64,000 bases of DNA from Candidatus Nanoarchaeia archaeon. Its GTDB lineage: Archaea > Nanobdellota > Nanobdellia > Woesearchaeales > ARS49. The position numbers were made by a program, and so were the translations under genes. Every line of letters starts with the position of its first letter. Within the stretch, counting starts at the first letter, position 1. Under the pieces are notes generated by a model. It ran no database searches. It saw only the letters and a program-made list of their open reading frames with translations, and was not told where the DNA came from. Shown piece by piece: positions 57,852 through 64,000 of the stretch. Location: positions 14,092 to 78,091 of the forward strand of contig JBGPOY010000003.1 of NCBI GenBank assembly GCA_041488275.1, read 5' to 3'.

Positions 57852-58299
57852 CGACCTCGCAGCGGTTGAAAAGAAAATTCTGGCGCGCGGCGGCGTCGCG
57901 CACGGCACCCGGAACGAGGACAATTACTTCATCCGGTTCGGCGGCTGGCTGCTTCGCCTGCGCACCGACCCGCCGACGCTCACCGTGAAAGGACCGCAAC
58001 AGAAGAACTCTCCCGTGCGTTCGGCGCTTGAATTCAACGTTCCCGTTCCGCGTTTCTTGCTCGGGCTTGCGGTCGCGCTTTTCCCGAAACGCCACCATTA
58101 CGCCAAAATCAGGAAAGTATTCACGCTCGCGAAGACCGAAGTCGTGCTGGACACGCTCGTTTTCGGCACGTTTGTCGAGATTGAAGGCGCCATTAAGGAC
58201 GTTTTGGCAGTTCAGAAATTGCTCGGACTGAAAACTCCCACCCGCGAAACGTATTCTCGGCTTGCAGAAAGCGCTACGCGTGCTTCTTCGGCGTCTTAG
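57820..58299 (+). CDS. CYTH-domain (triphosphate tunnel metalloenzyme) protein
   Basis: The N-terminal EHELKF carries the ExExK signature. About 159 aa, beta-rich. Overlaps the ATPase gene by 32 nt. Confidence 0.65.
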   Translation: MYEHELKFRVDDLAAVEKKILARGGVAHGTRNEDNYFIRFGGWLLRLRTDPPTLTVKGPQQKNSPVRSALEFNVPVPRFLLGLAVALFPKRHHYAKIRKVFTLAKTEVVLDTLVFGTFVEIEGAIKDVLAVQKLLGLKTPTRETYSRLAESATRASSAS

Positions 58300-59734
58300 T
58301 CGGCAGCGTGAACGTAAACGTGCTGCCCTTGCCCAGTCCTTTGCTGGCCGCGTGGATGGTGCCGCCGTGCGCATCAACGATGATTTTGCACGTGTAAAGC
58401 CCCAATCCGGTTCCGATGCCGGTCTGTTCCTGCACGCGGAAGAATTCAGTGAAAAGCTCGGAAAGCACGTCAGGAGCAATCCCGATGCCGGTGTCCTTGA
58501 ATTCAACCGCCACTGAACCTGCCTTACGGCGGGCAGTAATCGTGATGCTGCCTCCTTGCACATTGTACTTGATGGCATTGTTGAGGAGGTTTGAAATGAC
58601 ATCAGTCATCAGCGATTCATCAACGCGAATGGGCGGCAGAGACGCAAGATTGAGGGTGACCAGCAAGCCCTTTCCTCGCGCAACCTCTTCTTGCCGATTT
58701 ACTTCATTATGGATAATCTGTGGCAGTGAAACCAACGTGCGATTGACGACGACGCCCGTCCTGCGGATTTTTGCGATGTTGAGGAACCGCTGGATGAGCT
58801 CGCGGAGCCTGCGGCTGTCGGACATGATGAGGTTGACCGCTTCCTGCTGACGCGGGGAAAGCTCGCCGTATTTTCCATCAGTCAATAAATCAGCAAACCC
58901 CAAGATGCTCGTGATGGGCGTCGCGAACTGGTGCACGACCGACGCGACGAGCGTTTCCTTGAATGTCTCGGCGCGCTTGCGTTCGGTGATGTCGCGCATC
59001 GTCGCTTGAAGAGTCCCGTCGGGCAGTCGACGCCCGCTGACTTCCGCAGTAAAAACCGAGCCGTCCTTGCGAAGAACGTGCCGCTCGAACCGGACCGGTT
59101 CTCCTGCATTAACTTGGGCGAGGCGTTGTTTCCCTGTGGGAATTTCTGAGGGAAGGTACGTGGCAAATGCAGACATTTTGTACAGCTCCTCCTGCGAATA
59201 GCCAAGCATGGCACAAAACTGTTTGTTGACGAGCAGAAAGTTCGCCTTGGAATCCACCAAATAGATGCCGTCCGCAGCCTGCTCGATAAAGATGCGGTAT
59301 CGCTGTTCGCTTTCCCGTATCTTCTGCTCTGTCTTTTTTTGCTCCGTGATGTCATGGAATAGCTGCTGGATCAAGAGCTTGCCGTCTTCCAGAAAAGGGA
59401 ATGACGTAAACTGCACCATGCGCACGCCTCCATCGAGCTGTTGAATCTGCTGTTCAGTCGCTGGCGCGGGCTGGAAGTTCCGCGACATTTTGCGCCAGCG
59501 GGCATGAAGCACATCGCGGAACCCTTTGCCAAAAAACAAGTGTTCAGGTTTTCCGACAACCTGTCTCAGAGATGAAGCGCCCAGCATCCGCAGCCCCGCA
59601 CGGTTAATGAACACAATCTTGTCTCCGTCCCTAAAGATGACGGGTTCGGAAAAAGTCTCGAGCAGCTTGCGGTACGCGCTTCCGGTGTGAAGAAGTTGCT
59701 CAGACTTTTCGAAAGACGACGTTGAGCGCGCCAT
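58274..59734 (-). CDS. Cytoplasmic PAS-domain sensor histidine kinase
   Basis: Two PAS-like segments, H-box VVHQFATPITSI, and HATPase N/G boxes (NLLNNAIKY, DTGIGI, GTGLGL). Confidence 0.88.
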   Translation of the reverse strand: MARSTSSFEKSEQLLHTGSAYRKLLETFSEPVIFRDGDKIVFINRAGLRMLGASSLRQVVGKPEHLFFGKGFRDVLHARWRKMSRNFQPAPATEQQIQQLDGGVRMVQFTSFPFLEDGKLLIQQLFHDITEQKKTEQKIRESEQRYRIFIEQAADGIYLVDSKANFLLVNKQFCAMLGYSQEELYKMSAFATYLPSEIPTGKQRLAQVNAGEPVRFERHVLRKDGSVFTAEVSGRRLPDGTLQATMRDITERKRAETFKETLVASVVHQFATPITSILGFADLLTDGKYGELSPRQQEAVNLIMSDSRRLRELIQRFLNIAKIRRTGVVVNRTLVSLPQIIHNEVNRQEEVARGKGLLVTLNLASLPPIRVDESLMTDVISNLLNNAIKYNVQGGSITITARRKAGSVAVEFKDTGIGIAPDVLSELFTEFFRVQEQTGIGTGLGLYTCKIIVDAHGGTIHAASKGLGKGSTFTFTLPTKTPKKHA

Positions 59735-60129
59735 CAGCCGAGCGCTTTCTTGACGCGCTTCACCAAGTCCTTGTTGTCAAAGGGTTTGGGAACATAGTCG
59801 CTGATGCGGAGGCGCTTCATTTCCTGCATTGCCTGCAGTCCGAACTCGGCCACGGTCACGAAGATGAGCTTGACCTTGTCCCACTTCTCGTTCTTGCGGA
59901 TGCGCTCGCAGAGCTCGCGCCCGTTCATGTCCGGCATGAAGAAATCGACCAAGACCAAATCAAAGGAACTCTTGCGCATGGCGGCAAGCGCCTCGGCGCC
60001 GCCGAGAACCATCATCGCATCGTACCCTTCATTATCGAACAACGTTTTGAGAAGCTTCAAGACGTTCGGCTCGTCATCGACGAGGAGGATACGTTTTCTG
60101 GTCACCGTTTTTGCCACAGACTGCCTCAA
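59734..60129 (-). CDS. CheY-like response regulator receiver (stand-alone)
   Basis: ILLVDDEP...LVLVDFFMPDMNG...K receiver motifs. TTG or GTG start. TATA tttataaa lies at about 60166. Confidence 0.85.
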   Translation of the reverse strand: MRQSVAKTVTRKRILLVDDEPNVLKLLKTLFDNEGYDAMMVLGGAEALAAMRKSSFDLVLVDFFMPDMNGRELCERIRKNEKWDKVKLIFVTVAEFGLQAMQEMKRLRISDYVPKPFDNKDLVKRVKKALG

Positions 60130-60216
60130 AGGAATACTGTGATTTATCGAAAGGTCGTGAGGCGTATTTATAAACTTTTGCGACGGAAAGTTGACGAAGA
60201 CCGATGCGCCGGACGC

Positions 60217-60708
60217 TCACTCGAACAGTGCCGCGACTGCGCTGAAAAGTCCGCGCATCATCCGCCGCGTCTTTGAGAACATCGGTCCGGAATACATGAA
60301 CGCGAAGAGCAGTCCCAGAATGATGAGACTGGCGTCGTAGGTCTGCCGCGCGAAGTAGTCGCACGCGAGCGCGGGGCTGCTCGTGCACGTCAGGAGCAAG
60401 CCAAACTCATCCATAAACAATCCCATGCCGATGCCGAACAACACGGCGGCCACGTTGAACATGCGCGGACGGTTGGTCGTCAGCGCAATCCAGTTCGCGA
60501 TGGCAATGAGGAAAAAGCCGTAATAAAAATGGTGGATATGGTAACTGCGAATGAACAACCGCAGCCAGGACGGACCGTACATCACCGTCATCCGCGAAAC
60601 AATGAACGACAGGCTGAACGAGACGGCGATGAGGAACGGCGTCATCTTCCTGCGTCGGAGAATATCCTCATAGAAGACGCTTCTCAGCTCGCGAATCCAG
60701 TCCAACAT
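60217..60708 (-). CDS. Hypothetical membrane protein whose ATG lies 1 nt after tRNA-Ser(CGA)
   Basis: 163 aa with about four TM helices. The ATG at 60708-60706 follows the discriminator at 60710 after a single T. Confidence 0.55.
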   Translation of the reverse strand: MLDWIRELRSVFYEDILRRRKMTPFLIAVSFSLSFIVSRMTVMYGPSWLRLFIRSYHIHHFYYGFFLIAIANWIALTTNRPRMFNVAAVLFGIGMGLFMDEFGLLLTCTSSPALACDYFARQTYDASLIILGLLFAFMYSGPMFSKTRRMMRGLFSAVAALFE

Positions 60709-60709
60709 A

Positions 60710-60792
60710 CGCCGCCGGCAGGATTTGAACCTGCAGCCCCTTGCGGGAACGGTTTTCGAGACCGTCGCACTACCGGATTATGCGACAGCGGC
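60710..60792 (-). tRNA. tRNA-Ser(CGA)
   Basis: Acceptor GCCGCTG/CGGCGGC, anticodon stem ACGGT/ACCGT with loop CTCGAAA, long variable arm TCCCGCAAGGGGC, T arm GCAGG-TTCAAAT-CCTGC. Confidence 0.88.
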
Positions 60793-60891
60793 ATTGAAAG
60801 TGTGTACATGCGCCACGGAGGCTCGCTCCCTGACGACTGCCGATGTCGCGACCGCCGAGCGGCCTCGGCGTGGATGCGACAGCGGCATTGA
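60780..60891 (-). repeat. 18-nt direct repeat of the tRNA-Ser(CGA) 5' end plus leader, bracketing a 76-nt hairpin-bearing insert
   Basis: atgcgacagcggcattga occurs at 60780-60797 and 60874-60891. The hairpin gccgag-cggc-ctcggc lies at 60854-60869. Confidence 0.8.
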
Positions 60892-60897
60892 GTGTGG

Positions 60898-61047
60898 TCA
60901 AAATTCCGAGAGCGCTCTATTTGTTCCTTGCGCCTTTGCTTTTCTCAGCTCAGGAACGTTCTTTACGGCATTCGCAACGACGACCTGCTTGATGTCTTCG
61001 AACTGCGTAAGACGCGTGTTTTTCTTGGCTTCTTCGGAACTGACCAT
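60898..61047 (-). CDS. Possible 49-aa protein whose ATG lies 1 nt after tRNA-Glu
   Basis: My own translation gives MVSSEEAKKNTRLTQFEDIKQVVVANAVKNVPELRKAKAQGTNRALSEF. It is below the ORF-track cutoff. Confidence 0.35.
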   Translation of the reverse strand: MVSSEEAKKNTRLTQFEDIKQVVVANAVKNVPELRKAKAQGTNRALSEF

Positions 61048-61048
61048 A

Positions 61049-61123
61049 TGCACCCGGCGGGATTCGAACCCGCGTCGCCGCCGCGAGAGGGCAGCATCCT
61101 TGACCGGACTAGACTACAGGTGC
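61049..61123 (-). tRNA. tRNA-Glu(CTC)
   Basis: Acceptor GCACCTG/CGGGTGC, anticodon stem CTGCC/GGCGG, loop CTCTCGC, T arm GCGGG-TTCGAAT-CCCGC. Confidence 0.9.
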
Positions 61124-61145
61124 GCTCCTCGTTCGTCCTGAGAAG

Positions 61146-61162
61146 GCATTTAAAAAGGTTAC
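61146..61162 (-). promoter_or_regulatory. TATA promoter for tRNA-Glu
   Basis: cctttttaaatg (minus-strand reading) lies about 27 nt upstream of 61123. Confidence 0.5.
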
Positions 61163-61207
61163 TAAGAAAAAAAAGGCGCGCACGAAGCGCGCAAAAAGGA
61201 AGAACAA

Positions 61208-61360
61208 TTACTTTCCCTTGTGGGACATGTGGTGCCATCCTGAGAGCAGGAACAGCAGGGCAAGAACATACAGGCTCCACAAACTGTTGCCGGAGTACGC
61301 GAAGTACCCTGCAACAATACCGCCGATAATGTTCAGCCATCCACGGCTTTTTGAGTCCAT
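61208..61360 (-). CDS. Possible 50-aa two-helix membrane protein
   Basis: My own translation gives MDSKSRGWLNIIGGIVAGYFAYSGNSLWSLYVLALLFLLSGWHHMSHKGK. SD gaggtga and TATA tttatata lie upstream. Confidence 0.45.
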   Translation of the reverse strand: MDSKSRGWLNIIGGIVAGYFAYSGNSLWSLYVLALLFLLSGWHHMSHKGK

Positions 61361-61445
61361 ATCAAATCACCTCTTTCACTCGTAAAATGATTATTCTGTA
61401 TATAAATTAAAGGGTTTTTTGAGAGGGCGCAGCGAGGAGAGAAAA

Positions 61446-61527
61446 GACGCCACCGCCCGGACAAACACCGAGACCGCTCGGTGAGCCCGTGCGGGGCAAT
61501 GTACTTTATGAGACGCCACCGCCCGGA
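61446..61527 (+). repeat. Two 16-nt copies of the tRNA-Ser(GGA) 3'-end sequence bracketing a 50-nt hairpin-bearing insert
   Basis: gacgccaccgcccgga occurs at 61446-61461 and 61512-61527. The last 14-15 nt equal 63378-63391 inside tRNA-Ser(GGA). The hairpin caccgag-accg-ctcggtg lies at 61466-61483. Confidence 0.8.
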
Positions 61528-61638
61528 GCACTAGCGTTCAACGCAGACGCTTACAGGCTGTGACATGATCTAAGTTCTTGAAAACACCCGTGGATGGGAG
61601 CTTCCAGGTCTACTGAGTTTCACAGACGAGAAGTTCTA

Positions 61639-62301
61639 TTAAAGTCTTTTGGCCAGCTCTTGATACGCGACAGTGATGTATGGCAGAGCGAGATTAACAG
61701 TCTTTAGGGGAACGTTAATCATCGGATTATGCACGCCAGTATCCCCGAGGAATTTGACTCCGTTGAGTTCTTCCGCAGTCTTTGGCATCAAATACGGCTT
61801 TGTACCCACTGGATGGCTGCTTGCCATGCCAATCATCGCACCCAAGCCAAGAAGGTGTCCCTTAGCATTCTTCAGCGTATCGAGCTGTTTGTCTCGTGCG
61901 AAGACGTGGAAGATCAATTTTTCCAAGATTTTCCGCAACAAAAAGGCCGTGCAATCCCCACTCACTCCTGCGTTGTGCTTCAAATCGCGTAATTCCGAAG
62001 GACAAATCTTCTGAAGCACGGGAAGCACGTCATCAGGAATAACATCCTGCACAACAACCACTTTTGGCGGATATCTTTGTGCGTATTGCTCTCTATATTG
62101 CCGCAAGTACTTCGCCCTCTTCAGAGCCATGCGCAAGCTGGACGCTGTCGGATGACAGCCGTCCTTGGAAAGAGCTTCGACAATCTGTTGCCTCACCTTC
62201 TCACTCTTGAAGAAGCCGCCGTGCCAAAGACGCACCAAAGATGTCGGTACCGAGTTACTCTTCATCTTCTTCCTCATCCACGTACGGATGCTTCTGGACA
62301 T
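61639..62301 (-). CDS. Hypothetical protein with N-terminal wHTH-like segment (islet gene)
   Basis: 220 aa. IVEALSKDGCHPTASSLRMALKRAKYL resembles the neighbouring 86-aa protein. Confidence 0.5.
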   Translation of the reverse strand: MSRSIRTWMRKKMKSNSVPTSLVRLWHGGFFKSEKVRQQIVEALSKDGCHPTASSLRMALKRAKYLRQYREQYAQRYPPKVVVVQDVIPDDVLPVLQKICPSELRDLKHNAGVSGDCTAFLLRKILEKLIFHVFARDKQLDTLKNAKGHLLGLGAMIGMASSHPVGTKPYLMPKTAEELNGVKFLGDTGVHNPMINVPLKTVNLALPYITVAYQELAKRL

Positions 62302-62515
62302 ACGCGTATTTACCGGGCTTCCCTTTCCGCGTAAGGAACTTAGCTCTCTGCAGGGCCTTCATCAGCCCTTTGTCCGTGAAGTTATAGCCGTCGGCTTCCA
62401 AGGCCTCCTGTATCTCGCCGACATTCTTCAACTTCAGAAATTTCTTTGCCTTCCACAACATCTTGAGCGCATCGGGTGCTGTTTTCGCAATCGTCATCTT
62501 CGCACGTACCTCCAT
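62255..62515 (-). CDS. Small wHTH-like protein (islet gene)
   Basis: 86 aa. IQEALEADGYNFTDKGLMKALQRAKFL, with an acidic tail. Confidence 0.5.
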   Translation of the reverse strand: MEVRAKMTIAKTAPDALKMLWKAKKFLKLKNVGEIQEALEADGYNFTDKGLMKALQRAKFLTRKGKPGKYAYVQKHPYVDEEEDEE

Positions 62516-62883
62516 AACTTATTTTCCTCCATTCTTCGCAGTTCCTTGCGGCGCGTCAGGCCGAGCAATACTCCTGACAACGTTGTAATCGGTACGAACA
62601 CGCCTCTGGATTCGAGTGTTCGCTTTACGTCAACAATACCGATAGGCTTGTCGAATTCACCGTCGACAAGAAGTTCGCGAACATAATCAGTTACCGAATG
62701 CTTTGATTTTCCTGCTTCCGATTTGTGCGGCTTCGTGCTTGGTTTGCTCGCGGTTTCTTCAACTTCAGGTGCGGCGTACTCGCGCATGATTCTTGCGACT
62801 TCGTCGTGGCTTCCCTCGACGACAATGGTCGTACCGTTCTTTGTTTTAATGTGTGCTTTTACCATGTGATAACCACCAAGCAA
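62494..62883 (-). CDS. Hypothetical protein with C-terminal wHTH-like segment (islet gene)
   Basis: 129 aa. VDVKRTLESRGVFVPITTLSGVLLGLTRRKEL. Confidence 0.45.
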   Translation of the reverse strand: MLGGYHMVKAHIKTKNGTTIVVEGSHDEVARIMREYAAPEVEETASKPSTKPHKSEAGKSKHSVTDYVRELLVDGEFDKPIGIVDVKRTLESRGVFVPITTLSGVLLGLTRRKELRRMEENKLWRYVRR

Positions 62884-62986
62884 TATCGCGATAGTGCGAT
62901 ATAAAAACCTTTCGGATTACGAGGGTCAGCAGCCAAGAATAAAGCTCACGCTAGAAGAATCGCAGCCTTCTCCCCTCAGAAGTGCC

Positions 62987-63214
62987 TTAGATGTTTTCCA
63001 GCACTGCGACTACAACGGCCATCACTAGGCAGATGAAAATGACTGCTGCGATGTCCGCCGACGGTGCTATCGCTTGCGCGAGTTGCCAAAATGCGTCGAG
63101 TATTTGGGTAATTGCCGACATTTCTTGTTGTGTACCTCCTTTAATGTAGACCTGAGCCAAACTCAAGCTAACCAACGCAGCGCTATGGCAGGCTTTTAAC
63201 TGTTGAGAATCCAT
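62987..63214 (-). CDS. Small hypothetical membrane protein (islet gene)
   Basis: 75 aa with a C-terminal TM helix AAVIFICLVMAVVVAVL. Confidence 0.4.
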   Translation of the reverse strand: MDSQQLKACHSAALVSLSLAQVYIKGGTQQEMSAITQILDAFWQLAQAIAPSADIAAVIFICLVMAVVVAVLENI

Positions 63215-63377
63215 GTCCAGTGTCCACTGTCGAGCAGCAAGAATCTCTACCCTGAACGCCGCACCCTGACGTTAGGGTGAAAACAGGCAGAAAAACGTGT
63301 GGCGTCTATGGTTGAGACAGGACGCTCACCGTAGAACTGGACCAAAACGCGTCAGGCGTTTGTGGTTCAAAATAGAA

Positions 63378-63461
63378 CGCCACCGCCCGGATTTGAACCG
63401 GGAAATCCTTGCGGAAACAAGCTTTCCAGGCTTGCGCCTTACCAGGTTGGGCCACGGTGGC
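63378..63461 (-). tRNA. tRNA-Ser(GGA)
   Basis: Acceptor GCCACCG/CGGTGGC, 3-bp D stem, anticodon stem CAAGC/GCTTG with loop CTGGAAA, long variable arm, T arm CCCGG-TTCAAAT-CCGGG. Confidence 0.9.
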
Positions 63462-63561
63462 ATGAATGTCAGTGTGAAATGCACAGGCGCGCCGGCGCCG
63501 TGCACGCTGCCGCTGGCCTAGCCCGAGCGGACTCGGGCGTGGGTCACGGTGGCATGAATGT
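63453..63561 (-). repeat. 17-nt direct repeat of the tRNA-Ser(GGA) 5' end plus leader, bracketing a 75-nt hairpin-bearing insert
   Basis: cacggtggcatgaatgt occurs at 63453-63469 and 63545-63561. The hairpin gcccgag-cgga-ctcgggc lies at 63521-63538, and an imperfect palindrome at 63480-63504. Confidence 0.8.
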
Positions 63562-63572
63562 GTACTGGCAAA

Positions 63573-63646
63573 TGGCGGTGGGGAGATTTGAACTCTCGAC
63601 CTGCGGGTTATGAATCCGCCGCTCTACCAGGCTGAGCTACACCGCC
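63573..63646 (-). tRNA. tRNA with CAT anticodon (elongator Met or Ile2 type)
   Basis: Acceptor GGCGGTG/CACCGCC, D arm GCTC/GAGC, loop TTCATAA. There are two A:C mismatches, at 31:39 and 50:64. TATA ctttttaaag lies about 25 nt upstream. Confidence 0.75.
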
Positions 63647-63708
63647 GAGAGAACGCTCTCGAAGGTGCTTTAAAAAGCTTATTATAGAAGTGACAATAGG
63701 ATTCCCGC

Positions 63709-64000
63709 ATGGCAATGCCGAAAGAAGGCGATCCCGCACCGGCGTTTGAGGCGCAGGACCAGAACGGTAAACTGCATTCGTTGAAGCAATACCGCGGCAA
63801 AAAGGTCGTGCTCTACTTCTATCCCAAGGACATGACGACCGGATGCACCGTTGAAGCGTGCCAGTTCCGCGACCGCAAGGCGGACATCGCGAAAGAGGGA
63901 GCCGTTGTCTTGGGTGTGAGCGCGGATTCGGTCGCGAATCACAAGAAATTCGAGGCAAAAGAGAAACTGAACTTCACGTTACTGAGCGACCCCAAGAAAG
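63709..64000 (+). CDS. bcp: Peroxiredoxin Bcp-type (3'-truncated by the window end)
   Basis: My own translation gives MAMPKEGDPAPAFEAQDQNGKLHSLKQYRGKKVVLYFYPKDMTTGCTVEAC..., containing the PxxxTxxC peroxidatic motif. TATA ttattatag lies about 20 nt upstream. Confidence 0.8.
   Translation, partial: MAMPKEGDPAPAFEAQDQNGKLHSLKQYRGKKVVLYFYPKDMTTGCTVEACQFRDRKADIAKEGAVVLGVSADSVANHKKFEAKEKLNFTLLSDPKK

Follow-up and report, generated by a model that had tools for sequence, protein, structure and literature searches.

Can the trimming of a transfer RNA (tRNA) also create the start of the messenger RNA (mRNA) lying behind it? The question is raised by a short unit on the minus strand of contig C3 in the genome of a Candidatus Nanoarchaeia archaeon (GCA_041488275.1, here G000), within a stretch of 64,000 nucleotides (nt) at C3:14092-78091, called the window, to whose numbering positions given without a contig refer. 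In this unit tRNA-Glu(CTC) and tRNA-Ser(CGA) are each followed, after a single T, by the ATG of an open reading frame (ORF). The first, ORF49, encodes a small conserved protein of 49 amino acids (aa), and the second, ORF163, a conserved membrane protein of 163 aa. The host is a streamlined, uncultured DPANN archaeon of the Woesearchaeota/Nanoarchaeia type, represented by a dense assembly of 917 kb in 13 contigs which is 94% complete.

The answer favoured here, with moderate confidence and on the evidence of sequence, is that the unit would be transcribed as one tRNA-mRNA molecule from which cleavage by ribonuclease Z (RNase Z) would make near-leaderless mRNAs. A preliminary description of the locus had proposed that tRNA 3' processing creates such mRNAs. 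The analysis adds to that proposal a single promoter, two genuine ORFs, genes for RNase Z and for the RNA of RNase P, a genome that seems largely leaderless, and recurrence of the arrangement; for ORF163, conservation of the junction was not found.

Organisation of the unit and proposed processing

The gene order, the coordinates and both discriminator-T-ATG junctions described earlier are confirmed by the sequence, Rfam and ARAGORN (Table 1). The tRNA ends given by Rfam match the earlier ones exactly, and ARAGORN offsets tRNA-Ser by one base. The sequence 5' of each ATG is the tRNA acceptor stem itself, and neither ORF has a leader or a Shine-Dalgarno motif before its start codon, where only one T is found. 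Since CCA is encoded by neither tRNA, both need maturation.

A promoter matrix of 16 positions (consensus AAACCTTTATAAACCC) was built from the upstream regions of the 44 tRNA genes of G000. In 30 of these genes an upstream site scores 9.8 bits or more, which leaves 19-32 nt between motif and tRNA; sites of at least 14 bits number 294 across the genome vs 9 in shuffled sequence. The only strong promoter of the unit is the 16-mer ahead of tRNA-Glu, which includes the TATA box at 61148-61159 and ends 22 nt ahead of the tRNA 5' end; from there to 60179, the best minus-strand score is 6.4 bits. The best score within the 60 nt upstream of tRNA-Ser(CGA) is below 0, and the best nearby minus-strand site (60804-60789) reaches 5.0 bits. 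The earlier observation of no TATA box between the tRNAs and the ORFs is therefore borne out, within the limits of a motif scan, which weak or atypical promoters could escape. The T-loop sequence TTCAAAT was considered as an internal promoter and rejected, as its distance from the ATG (-21 to -15) is too short for the fixed spacing and its matrix scores are low. At its upstream side, the unit would be insulated from other transcription by a terminator-like hairpin (61193-61168) closing an upstream ORF of 50 aa (61360-61208), and its downstream limit is set by the next strong promoter, located past the ORF163 stop codon.

The matrix also informs on the usual form of mRNA starts in this organism. 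An ORF of at least 80 aa is found within 200 nt of 264 of the 294 promoter sites, and in 103 cases it starts 19-21 nt past the motif (19 nt at 70 sites, 20 nt at 24 and 21 nt at 9). Because start codons lie 19-21 nt, and tRNA 5' ends 19-32 nt, after the motif, this suggests that the promoter-proximal genes of G000 are mainly leaderless and that leaders of 1-2 nt seem to be common, a conclusion which rests on the spacing between motif and start rather than on mapped transcription starts.

Under the processing reading, a single transcription unit at 61161-60217 would be driven by the promoter ahead of tRNA-Glu, with a transcript starting near 61126 and carrying tRNA-Glu, ORF49, a hairpin insert, tRNA-Ser and ORF163. 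RNase P would cut the tRNA 5' ends and RNase Z would cut after the discriminators, each RNase Z cut freeing a downstream RNA which begins with U-AUG and has a 5' monophosphate. The mRNA of ORF49 would extend to the RNase P cut at the 5' end of tRNA-Ser and include the hairpin insert as a 3' untranslated region (UTR); the same insert would double as the 5' leader of tRNA-Ser. Both products, U-AUG-ORF49 and U-AUG-ORF163, would then be translated by the organism's default leaderless route, differing from primary leaderless mRNAs by one U and the monophosphate end only. Before cleavage, the folded acceptor stem, only one base away, would presumably keep the AUG inaccessible, judging from known ribosome footprints. 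The genome encodes both RNase Z (C7:1705-2586; TIGR02651, 315 bits vs a cut-off of 293) and an archaeal RNase P RNA (C7:48900-49238; RF00373, 115.5 bits vs a threshold of 84). From these features we infer that transcription reads through the unit, that these cleavage products arise and that they are translated.

Table 1. Features of the tRNA/ORF unit and its borders, in the direction of transcription (window positions)
Feature	Position	Strand	Evidence and remarks
Terminator-like GC hairpin, then T8	61168..61193	-	Stem GCGCGC/GCGCGC plus CTTTTTTTTC
BRE/TATA promoter (BRE, transcription factor B recognition element) TAACCTTTTTAAATGC	61146..61161	-	Promoter matrix, 19.2 bits
tRNA-Glu(CTC)	61049..61123	-	Discriminator A at 61049; ARAGORN and Rfam RF00005, 58.2 bits
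Single T trailer of tRNA-Glu	61048	-	Predicted RNase Z cut between 61049 and 61048
ORF49, small conserved protein, 49 aa	60898..61047	-	ATG 61047-61045; homologues
Hairpin insert and duplicated tRNA-Ser leader, 104 nt	60793..60896	-	Direct repeat, fold
tRNA-Ser(CGA)	60710..60792	-	Discriminator G at 60710; Rfam, 57.8 bits; ARAGORN
Single T trailer of tRNA-Ser	60709	-	Predicted RNase Z cut between 60710 and 60709
ORF163, conserved membrane protein, 163 aa	60217..60708	-	ATG 60708-60706; homologues
Next strong promoter AAAAGTTTATAAATAC, response-regulator gene	60164..60179	-	Matrix, 17.3 bits; receiver domain (Pfam)

Among the tRNA genes of G000, 14 of 44 are without a recognisable promoter in the 60 nt upstream. 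Some of these genes, such as those of tRNA-Pro(CGG), tRNA-His, tRNA-Pro(GGG), tRNA-Asn and tRNA-Lys(TTT), seem embedded behind protein genes, and tRNA-Pro(CGG) would then have coding sequence at both sides.

Recurrence of the junctions and status of the two genes

The arrangement is not confined to the unit. In G000, 6 of the 44 tRNAs have an ATG within 4 nt of the discriminator which opens a frame of 49-256 codons. Besides tRNA-Glu(CTC) and tRNA-Ser(CGA), each with the trailer T, these are tRNA-Arg(CCT) (trailer T; 256 aa, alpha/beta hydrolase by Pfam), tRNA-Ile(GAT) (TT; 82 aa, a diphthamide-synthesis fragment by Pfam), tRNA-Phe(GAA) (TTT; 227 aa) and tRNA-Pro(CGG) (TCCG; 202 aa, 2OG-Fe(II) oxygenase by Pfam). 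The chance that an ATG opening at least 49 codons lies 1-4 nt past a random position is p = 0.024, which gives a binomial probability of 6.6e-4 for 6 of 44; a trailer of exactly 1 nt before the ATG is found in 3 of the 44 tRNAs (p = 2.5e-3). A T directly follows the discriminator in 27 of the 29 strict T-arm matches of the genome, and one T is therefore the shortest spacing which retains the usual trailer base. A run of four T after the tRNA occurs in none of the 6 ORF-abutting tRNAs vs 14 of the 38 others; this lack of T runs is consistent with read-through and is not significant taken alone.

On a broader scale, the pattern GGTTCRAATCC, 12-15 nt, ATG was searched in the 41 genomes of the family, G000 included, and gave 100 matches in 32 of them, the reversed control giving none. 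When G000 is left out, 96 matches are counted in 40 genomes, with trailer classes counted by hand: 46 matches with a trailer of 1 nt (T in 43), 16 with 2 nt, 18 with 3 nt and 16 with 4 nt. The frames opened were sampled by taking the first match of each genome outside G000, and 16 of these 30 open at least 100 codons vs 26% for a random ATG of G000 (p = 1.4e-3). Where all matches of a genome were followed, 9 of 10 open 89-256 codons in G003 and 3 of 6 open 92-254 codons in G006; G030, flagged as unpublished together with G015, contributes a single match with an ORF of 14 codons. Within the family, only the 1-nt trailer class and the ORF-length test stand out. The discriminator-T-ATG junction itself was counted 43 times in the 40 other genomes of the family vs 6 times in a set of 79 genomes, one for each of 79 other families of the order, a per-genome frequency about 14-fold higher than in the sister families. 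Furthermore, two of the junctions of G000 recur with the same genes in congeners: the tRNA-Arg(CCT)-hydrolase junction reads T-ATG in G000 and G006 and TT-ATG in G003, and the tRNA-Pro(CGG)-oxygenase junction reads TCCG-ATG in G000 and T-ATG in G003.

Some further observations concern ORFs next to tRNA genes. The 82-aa ORF abutting tRNA-Ile(GAT) (C1:37363-37611, locus L031) matches the first 56 of 302 positions of the diphthamide-synthesis family and corresponds to a split, truncated or frameshifted Dph2-like gene. At C3:21255 on the minus strand (window about 7164), a strict T-arm GGTTCAAATCC is accompanied by an acceptor-like strand and a T-rich trailer where ARAGORN calls no tRNA, and it may belong to a tRNA gene interrupted by an intron or disrupted in some other way; in G003 (L078), TT-ATG and an ORF of 165 aa come after a similar T-arm that also lacks a tRNA call. 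An ORF of 479 aa (C5:40316-41755), which by eye resembles a metallo-beta-lactamase/beta-CASP RNase-J-like nuclease, starts 26 nt past the ARAGORN end of tRNA-Leu(CAA).

As for the genes themselves, six-frame searches found ORF49 homologues with open frames and 57-66% identity in all six genomes of the same genus, and further ones in G010, G015, G055, G020 and G016. An alignment of ten sequences of 46-52 aa has a conserved core, with the motif KKNxRLTxFxDIKxxVIANxVKNVP...SLSEF. In five of the six congeners ORF49 lies between tRNA-Glu(CTC) and tRNA-Ser(CGA); in the sixth, G001, tRNA-Glu(CTC) is present at the locus and tRNA-Ser(CGA) was not called there. No function was suggested by the searches made: ORF49 has no Pfam family, a word-based protein search returned only ORF49 itself, a first scan of the genome contigs gave no match, and a protein atlas placed it in clusters without a name at 0.90-0.92, its recognition being too low to be of use. 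A GTG at 61053 was rejected as an alternative start, being located inside the acceptor stem, and the G004 orthologue begins at the ATG. Judged by this conservation, ORF49 is a genuine gene starting at the called ATG, and the objection that it might not be conserved, which the preliminary description had itself named, does not apply.

ORF163 has 44 homologues, nearly all of 151-171 aa, from metagenome-assembled genomes (MAGs) titled Woesearchaeota, Nanoarchaeia or Nanoarchaeota. The ORF is intact and full length, with 58-67% identity to many of them, and features the invariant motifs YHxHHFYYG and DExGLLLTC; no Pfam family was found for it. The starts of 15 aligned N-termini fall within two residues of each other, with S10, D15 and R19 invariant. 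A downstream start at M22 was rejected on the conservation of residues 1-21, which also disposes of the second named objection, that ORF163 might begin further downstream. By the same alignment, ORF163 is taken as a genuine gene with its start at 60708.

Evidence against the processing reading and rival explanations

Several observations weigh against the processing reading, and they concern first of all the age of the two junctions, both of which are evolutionarily young. Among the congeners, the ORF49 junction is retained only in the closest relative G004, as discriminator-TT-ATG. The spacer from tRNA-Glu to the ATG measures 107-190 nt in G001, G003, G005 and G006, and in G002 the ORF49 start is a GTG about 68 nt past the tRNA. 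The spacers of G001, G003, G005 and G006 contain hairpins and copied tRNA parts, namely a T-arm in antisense and the tRNA-Glu 3' end in sense orientation, and from this copied end to the ORF49 ATG there are 5-6 nt in G001 and G005 and 23-28 nt, with the Shine-Dalgarno-like motifs GAGG or GGTGAT, in G003 and G006. In G010 and G015, a tRNA-Glu-like 3' end is found about 20 nt before ORF49, which has a Shine-Dalgarno-like motif in front. As read from these comparisons, the tRNA-Glu/ORF49 linkage is old and its leader has ranged from 28 nt with a Shine-Dalgarno motif to 1 nt.

The junction of ORF163 has no counterpart in the genomes compared. The gene was not found in the six congeners, of which five are 90-98% complete and G005 is 74% complete, and among 60 relatives it was found in no more than 2, where in each case its ATG overlaps the stop codon of an upstream ORF (TAATG, ATGA). 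Moreover, no same-strand tRNA was found upstream of its homologues in 35 archaeal loci. A promoter motif lies 15-26 nt before the start in 10 of these 35 loci, including 5 of the 6 closest, a spacing which is the predicted signature of a primary leaderless mRNA and marks the family as normally leaderless, a point in favour of the processing reading. In G000, the tRNA 3' end occupies the place of the predicted transcription start of the relatives, and on this distribution ORF163 is a recent arrival in the lineage. The two closest homologues (64% identity; loci L086 and L091, in Nanoarchaeia-type MAGs) adjoin a tRNA-Ser(TGA) gene located some 220 nt upstream on the other strand, and they have promoters of their own at leaderless distance.

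Two points of a more general kind go in the same direction. The family counts for trailers of 2-4 nt (16, 18 and 16) are not clearly above a rough expectation of 1/64, and archaeal RNAs with a 5' monophosphate may have a lower stability than primary transcripts. The conservation of the junctions, which the preliminary description had proposed as a check, thus gives a divided result: the ORF49 junction is found as TT-ATG in G004 and two other junctions are kept, and that of ORF163 is not conserved. The suggested coupling of the two proteins to tRNA transcription has the look of an arrangement which is tolerated and recurs, and not that of a regulatory design conserved for this pair of genes.

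The likeliest rival explanation accepts co-transcription and holds that the RNase Z cut is not what enables translation, which would instead depend on internal initiation independent of Shine-Dalgarno motifs or on other nucleases, the 1-nt spacing being a product of compaction. In a crude census with rough ORF calls, 467 of 695 long ORFs lack both a promoter at leaderless distance and a Shine-Dalgarno-like motif; many internal cistrons therefore start translation by another route, possibly one usable by ORF49 and ORF163, and this too counts against the processing reading. The stop codon overlaps in its relatives imply that ORF163 tolerates contexts which are not leaderless, the genome is dense at 0.92 Mb, and the T found after the discriminator in 27 of 29 T-arm matches would be present in any case. 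However, with the AUG 1 nt from the acceptor stem, ribosome footprints imply that no single-stranded upstream mRNA would be available to the ribosome unless the tRNA were removed or unfolded, and coupling by overlap of stop and start is impossible after an untranslated tRNA. Cleavage after the discriminator is needed anyway for the addition of CCA, and the junction is about 14-fold more frequent per genome than in sister families with equally small genomes. This alternative is therefore regarded as unlikely, though deserving of some weight.

A second rival takes the junctions as by-products of recombination at tRNA ends, which would spread hairpin inserts and leave ORF163 as a newly arrived accessory gene, perhaps poorly expressed or silent, with no role of the junction in expression. 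Such inserts are a real feature of this genome. The duplicated leader and insert of the preliminary description are confirmed as a 23-nt direct repeat (60780-60802 and 60874-60896), made up of the leader and the initial 13 nt of tRNA-Ser, and a stable fold of -47.3 kcal/mol (z-score -3.5, with 0 of 200 shuffles as good); in the insert, the first copy (60896-60874) is followed by the palindrome CGCCGAGGCCGCTCGGCG (60870-60853). Inserts of this 5' type with duplicated tRNA ends are found at three tRNA-Ser genes (CGA, GGA and TGA), inserts of a 3' type at tRNA-Ser(GCT) and tRNA-Val(GAC) of G000, and others at tRNA-Glu(CTC) in the congeners, where the copied tRNA-Glu 3' ends of G001 and G005 look like target duplications of the inserts. 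Together with the patchy distribution of ORF163 and the fact that nothing follows tRNA-Ser(CGA) in G004, these duplications speak for recombination. Against it, a search of the 64-kb window with the 20-nt 3' end of tRNA-Ser(CGA), allowing 3 mismatches, gave no match besides this end and tRNA-Ser(GGA), and no repeat downstream of ORF163. In addition, the seven ORFs of 59734-62883 matched only a receiver domain and no integrase or mobile-element family at the curated cut-offs of Pfam, a scan made without an integrase profile search and ending short of the ORFs further downstream (including one of 486 aa at 58274-59734). ORF163 is intact and well conserved in sequence, and the ORF49, hydrolase and oxygenase junctions are kept across species, which needs expression. 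An origin by recombination is also compatible with the expression mechanism, and as an explanation which excludes it, this rival is held to be improbable.

A search of public sequencing runs for 59700-61700 returned one DNA run, possibly from the source sample and hence not independent, and no RNA run. A chimeric assembly, with tRNA-Ser and ORF163 wrongly joined at a repeat, can be set aside as highly improbable: in this DNA run, separate contigs do break in the tRNA-Ser T-arm at a 30-nt repeat common to tRNA-Ser(TGA), but the last 35 nt of tRNA-Ser, the T and ORF163 are on one contig (60100-60744), the acceptor 3' strand CGGCGGC pairs with GCCGCTG of the other contig and not with the 5' strand of tRNA-Ser(TGA), contig depths are similar (10.6, 8.6 and 9.7), and the tRNA-Glu/ORF49 junction lies within one contig.

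The inserts were also observed in other settings. The spacers of G001 and G005 fold stably (z-scores -3.3 and -3.9), and their copied tRNA-Glu 3' ends were considered as an RNase Z-cut minihelix, a candidate rejected since the copied strand is not in an acceptor-like stem in the predicted fold. At tRNA-Ser(GCT) (C4:36737-36960, L038), a hairpin insert of 52 nt is followed by an exact copy of the T-stem/acceptor 3' strand CCGGGCGGTGGCGTC, and 36 nt past this copy, with the motifs AGGAG and GAGG, begins the ATG of seryl-tRNA synthetase; the tRNA and its own synthetase gene appear to be under one promoter. An orphan insert of the 3' type without a tRNA body is found at 61446-61527 on the minus strand, where two copies of CCGGGCGGTGGCGTC enclose a CACCGAGCGGTCTCGGTG hairpin; it is 92% identical to C4:36808-36891 and lies just upstream of the weak TATA box of the 50-aa ORF at 61360-61208. 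The palindrome CACCGAG-N4-CTCGGTG of these inserts is also located directly upstream of three promoters (C1:57482-57499, C4:22578-22595 and C4:60588-60605), one of which belongs to tRNA-Pro(TGG), and at all three a further hairpin (GTTTCGNG...CNCGAAAC) comes next and runs into the BRE/TATA.

If the processing reading is true, tRNA punctuation would exist outside organelles as a recurrent, lineage-specific habit of a free-standing archaeal genome, and archaea would have a second route to leaderless mRNAs, by processing rather than by transcription initiation. The junctions bear on the recognition and stabilisation of leaderless RNAs with a 5' monophosphate, and they provide a natural system for testing whether a triphosphate end is required for leaderless initiation. 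They also give a concrete cause for gene callers and operon predictors to misjudge starts and units in DPANN genomes. A wider speculation, put forward as an improbable one, is that the tRNA genes of the family are general modules of promoter plus processing, past whose discriminators promoterless genes, among them new accessory acquisitions like ORF163, are set at a distance of exactly one T, to be turned into leaderless mRNAs by the obligatory RNase Z cut; the tRNA-end recombination to which the hairpin inserts owe their spread would deliver the genes, making an integron-like platform of capture and expression.

Comparison with known systems

In bacterial operons of the tRNA-tufB type, a tRNA and a protein gene depend on one promoter. 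A comparable archaeal case is described in PMC4247193, in which the tRNA-Lys of Thermococcus kodakarensis lies within the 5' UTR of TK0306 (159 nt including the tRNA). The unit of G000 resembles these co-transcripts in the promoter shared by tRNA and protein gene; unlike them, where the mRNA keeps a leader after the tRNA, no leader remains here.

Closer in lineage are the dicistrons of tRNA and C/D box small RNA (sRNA) in Nanoarchaeum equitans, for which PMC3491384 reports that the sRNA 5' end is made by RNase Z. As in that case, a promoterless gene directly follows a tRNA in a minimal DPANN genome, and RNase Z would make its 5' end. The product here is instead protein-coding, with a start codon 1 nt from the cut, and the cut would thus also create the context for initiation. 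No C/D box sRNA was found in 60217-61162 in a permissive Rfam scan of 58000-64000, whose only C/D box hit was a sub-threshold sR32 at 58820-58872 (21.2 vs 40 bits).

Two aspects of the proposed pathway have precedents in Haloferax, where, according to the respective articles, cuts by RNase P and tRNase Z at tRNA-like elements give exact ends in vivo (PMC4946936) and 72% of protein-coding primary transcripts are leaderless (PMC4983044). Like primary archaeal leaderless mRNAs, the RNAs proposed here would have their AUG within 1-2 nt of the 5' end and no Shine-Dalgarno motif. Unlike them, their 5' end would come from endonucleolytic processing, with a monophosphate and an extra U, and not from initiation, which leaves a triphosphate. 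In full-text literature, with subscription journals mostly uncovered, we came across no description of archaeal protein genes with a start codon 1-4 nt past a tRNA, or of tRNA processing yielding archaeal leaderless mRNAs.

In mitochondria, tRNA punctuation is the process by which polycistronic transcripts are cut by RNase P and RNase Z/ELAC2, releasing leaderless mRNAs. Papers on the topic include PMC3790967 and PMC8437803. The likeness extends to tRNAs placed between 0 and a few nt from coding sequences, to one promoter serving several genes, and to tRNA end-processing which would set the mRNA ends and release leaderless mRNAs. The unit differs in belonging to the chromosome of an archaeal cell, which has promoters of its own by the hundred, in that the tRNAs so placed form a minority (about 6 of 44), and in being described at the level of sequence; furthermore, RNase P is here the archaeal RNA enzyme, and no polyadenylation is needed to complete stop codons. 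Mitochondrial punctuation, in which the trimming of a tRNA makes a translatable mRNA end, is the closest analogue of this unit.

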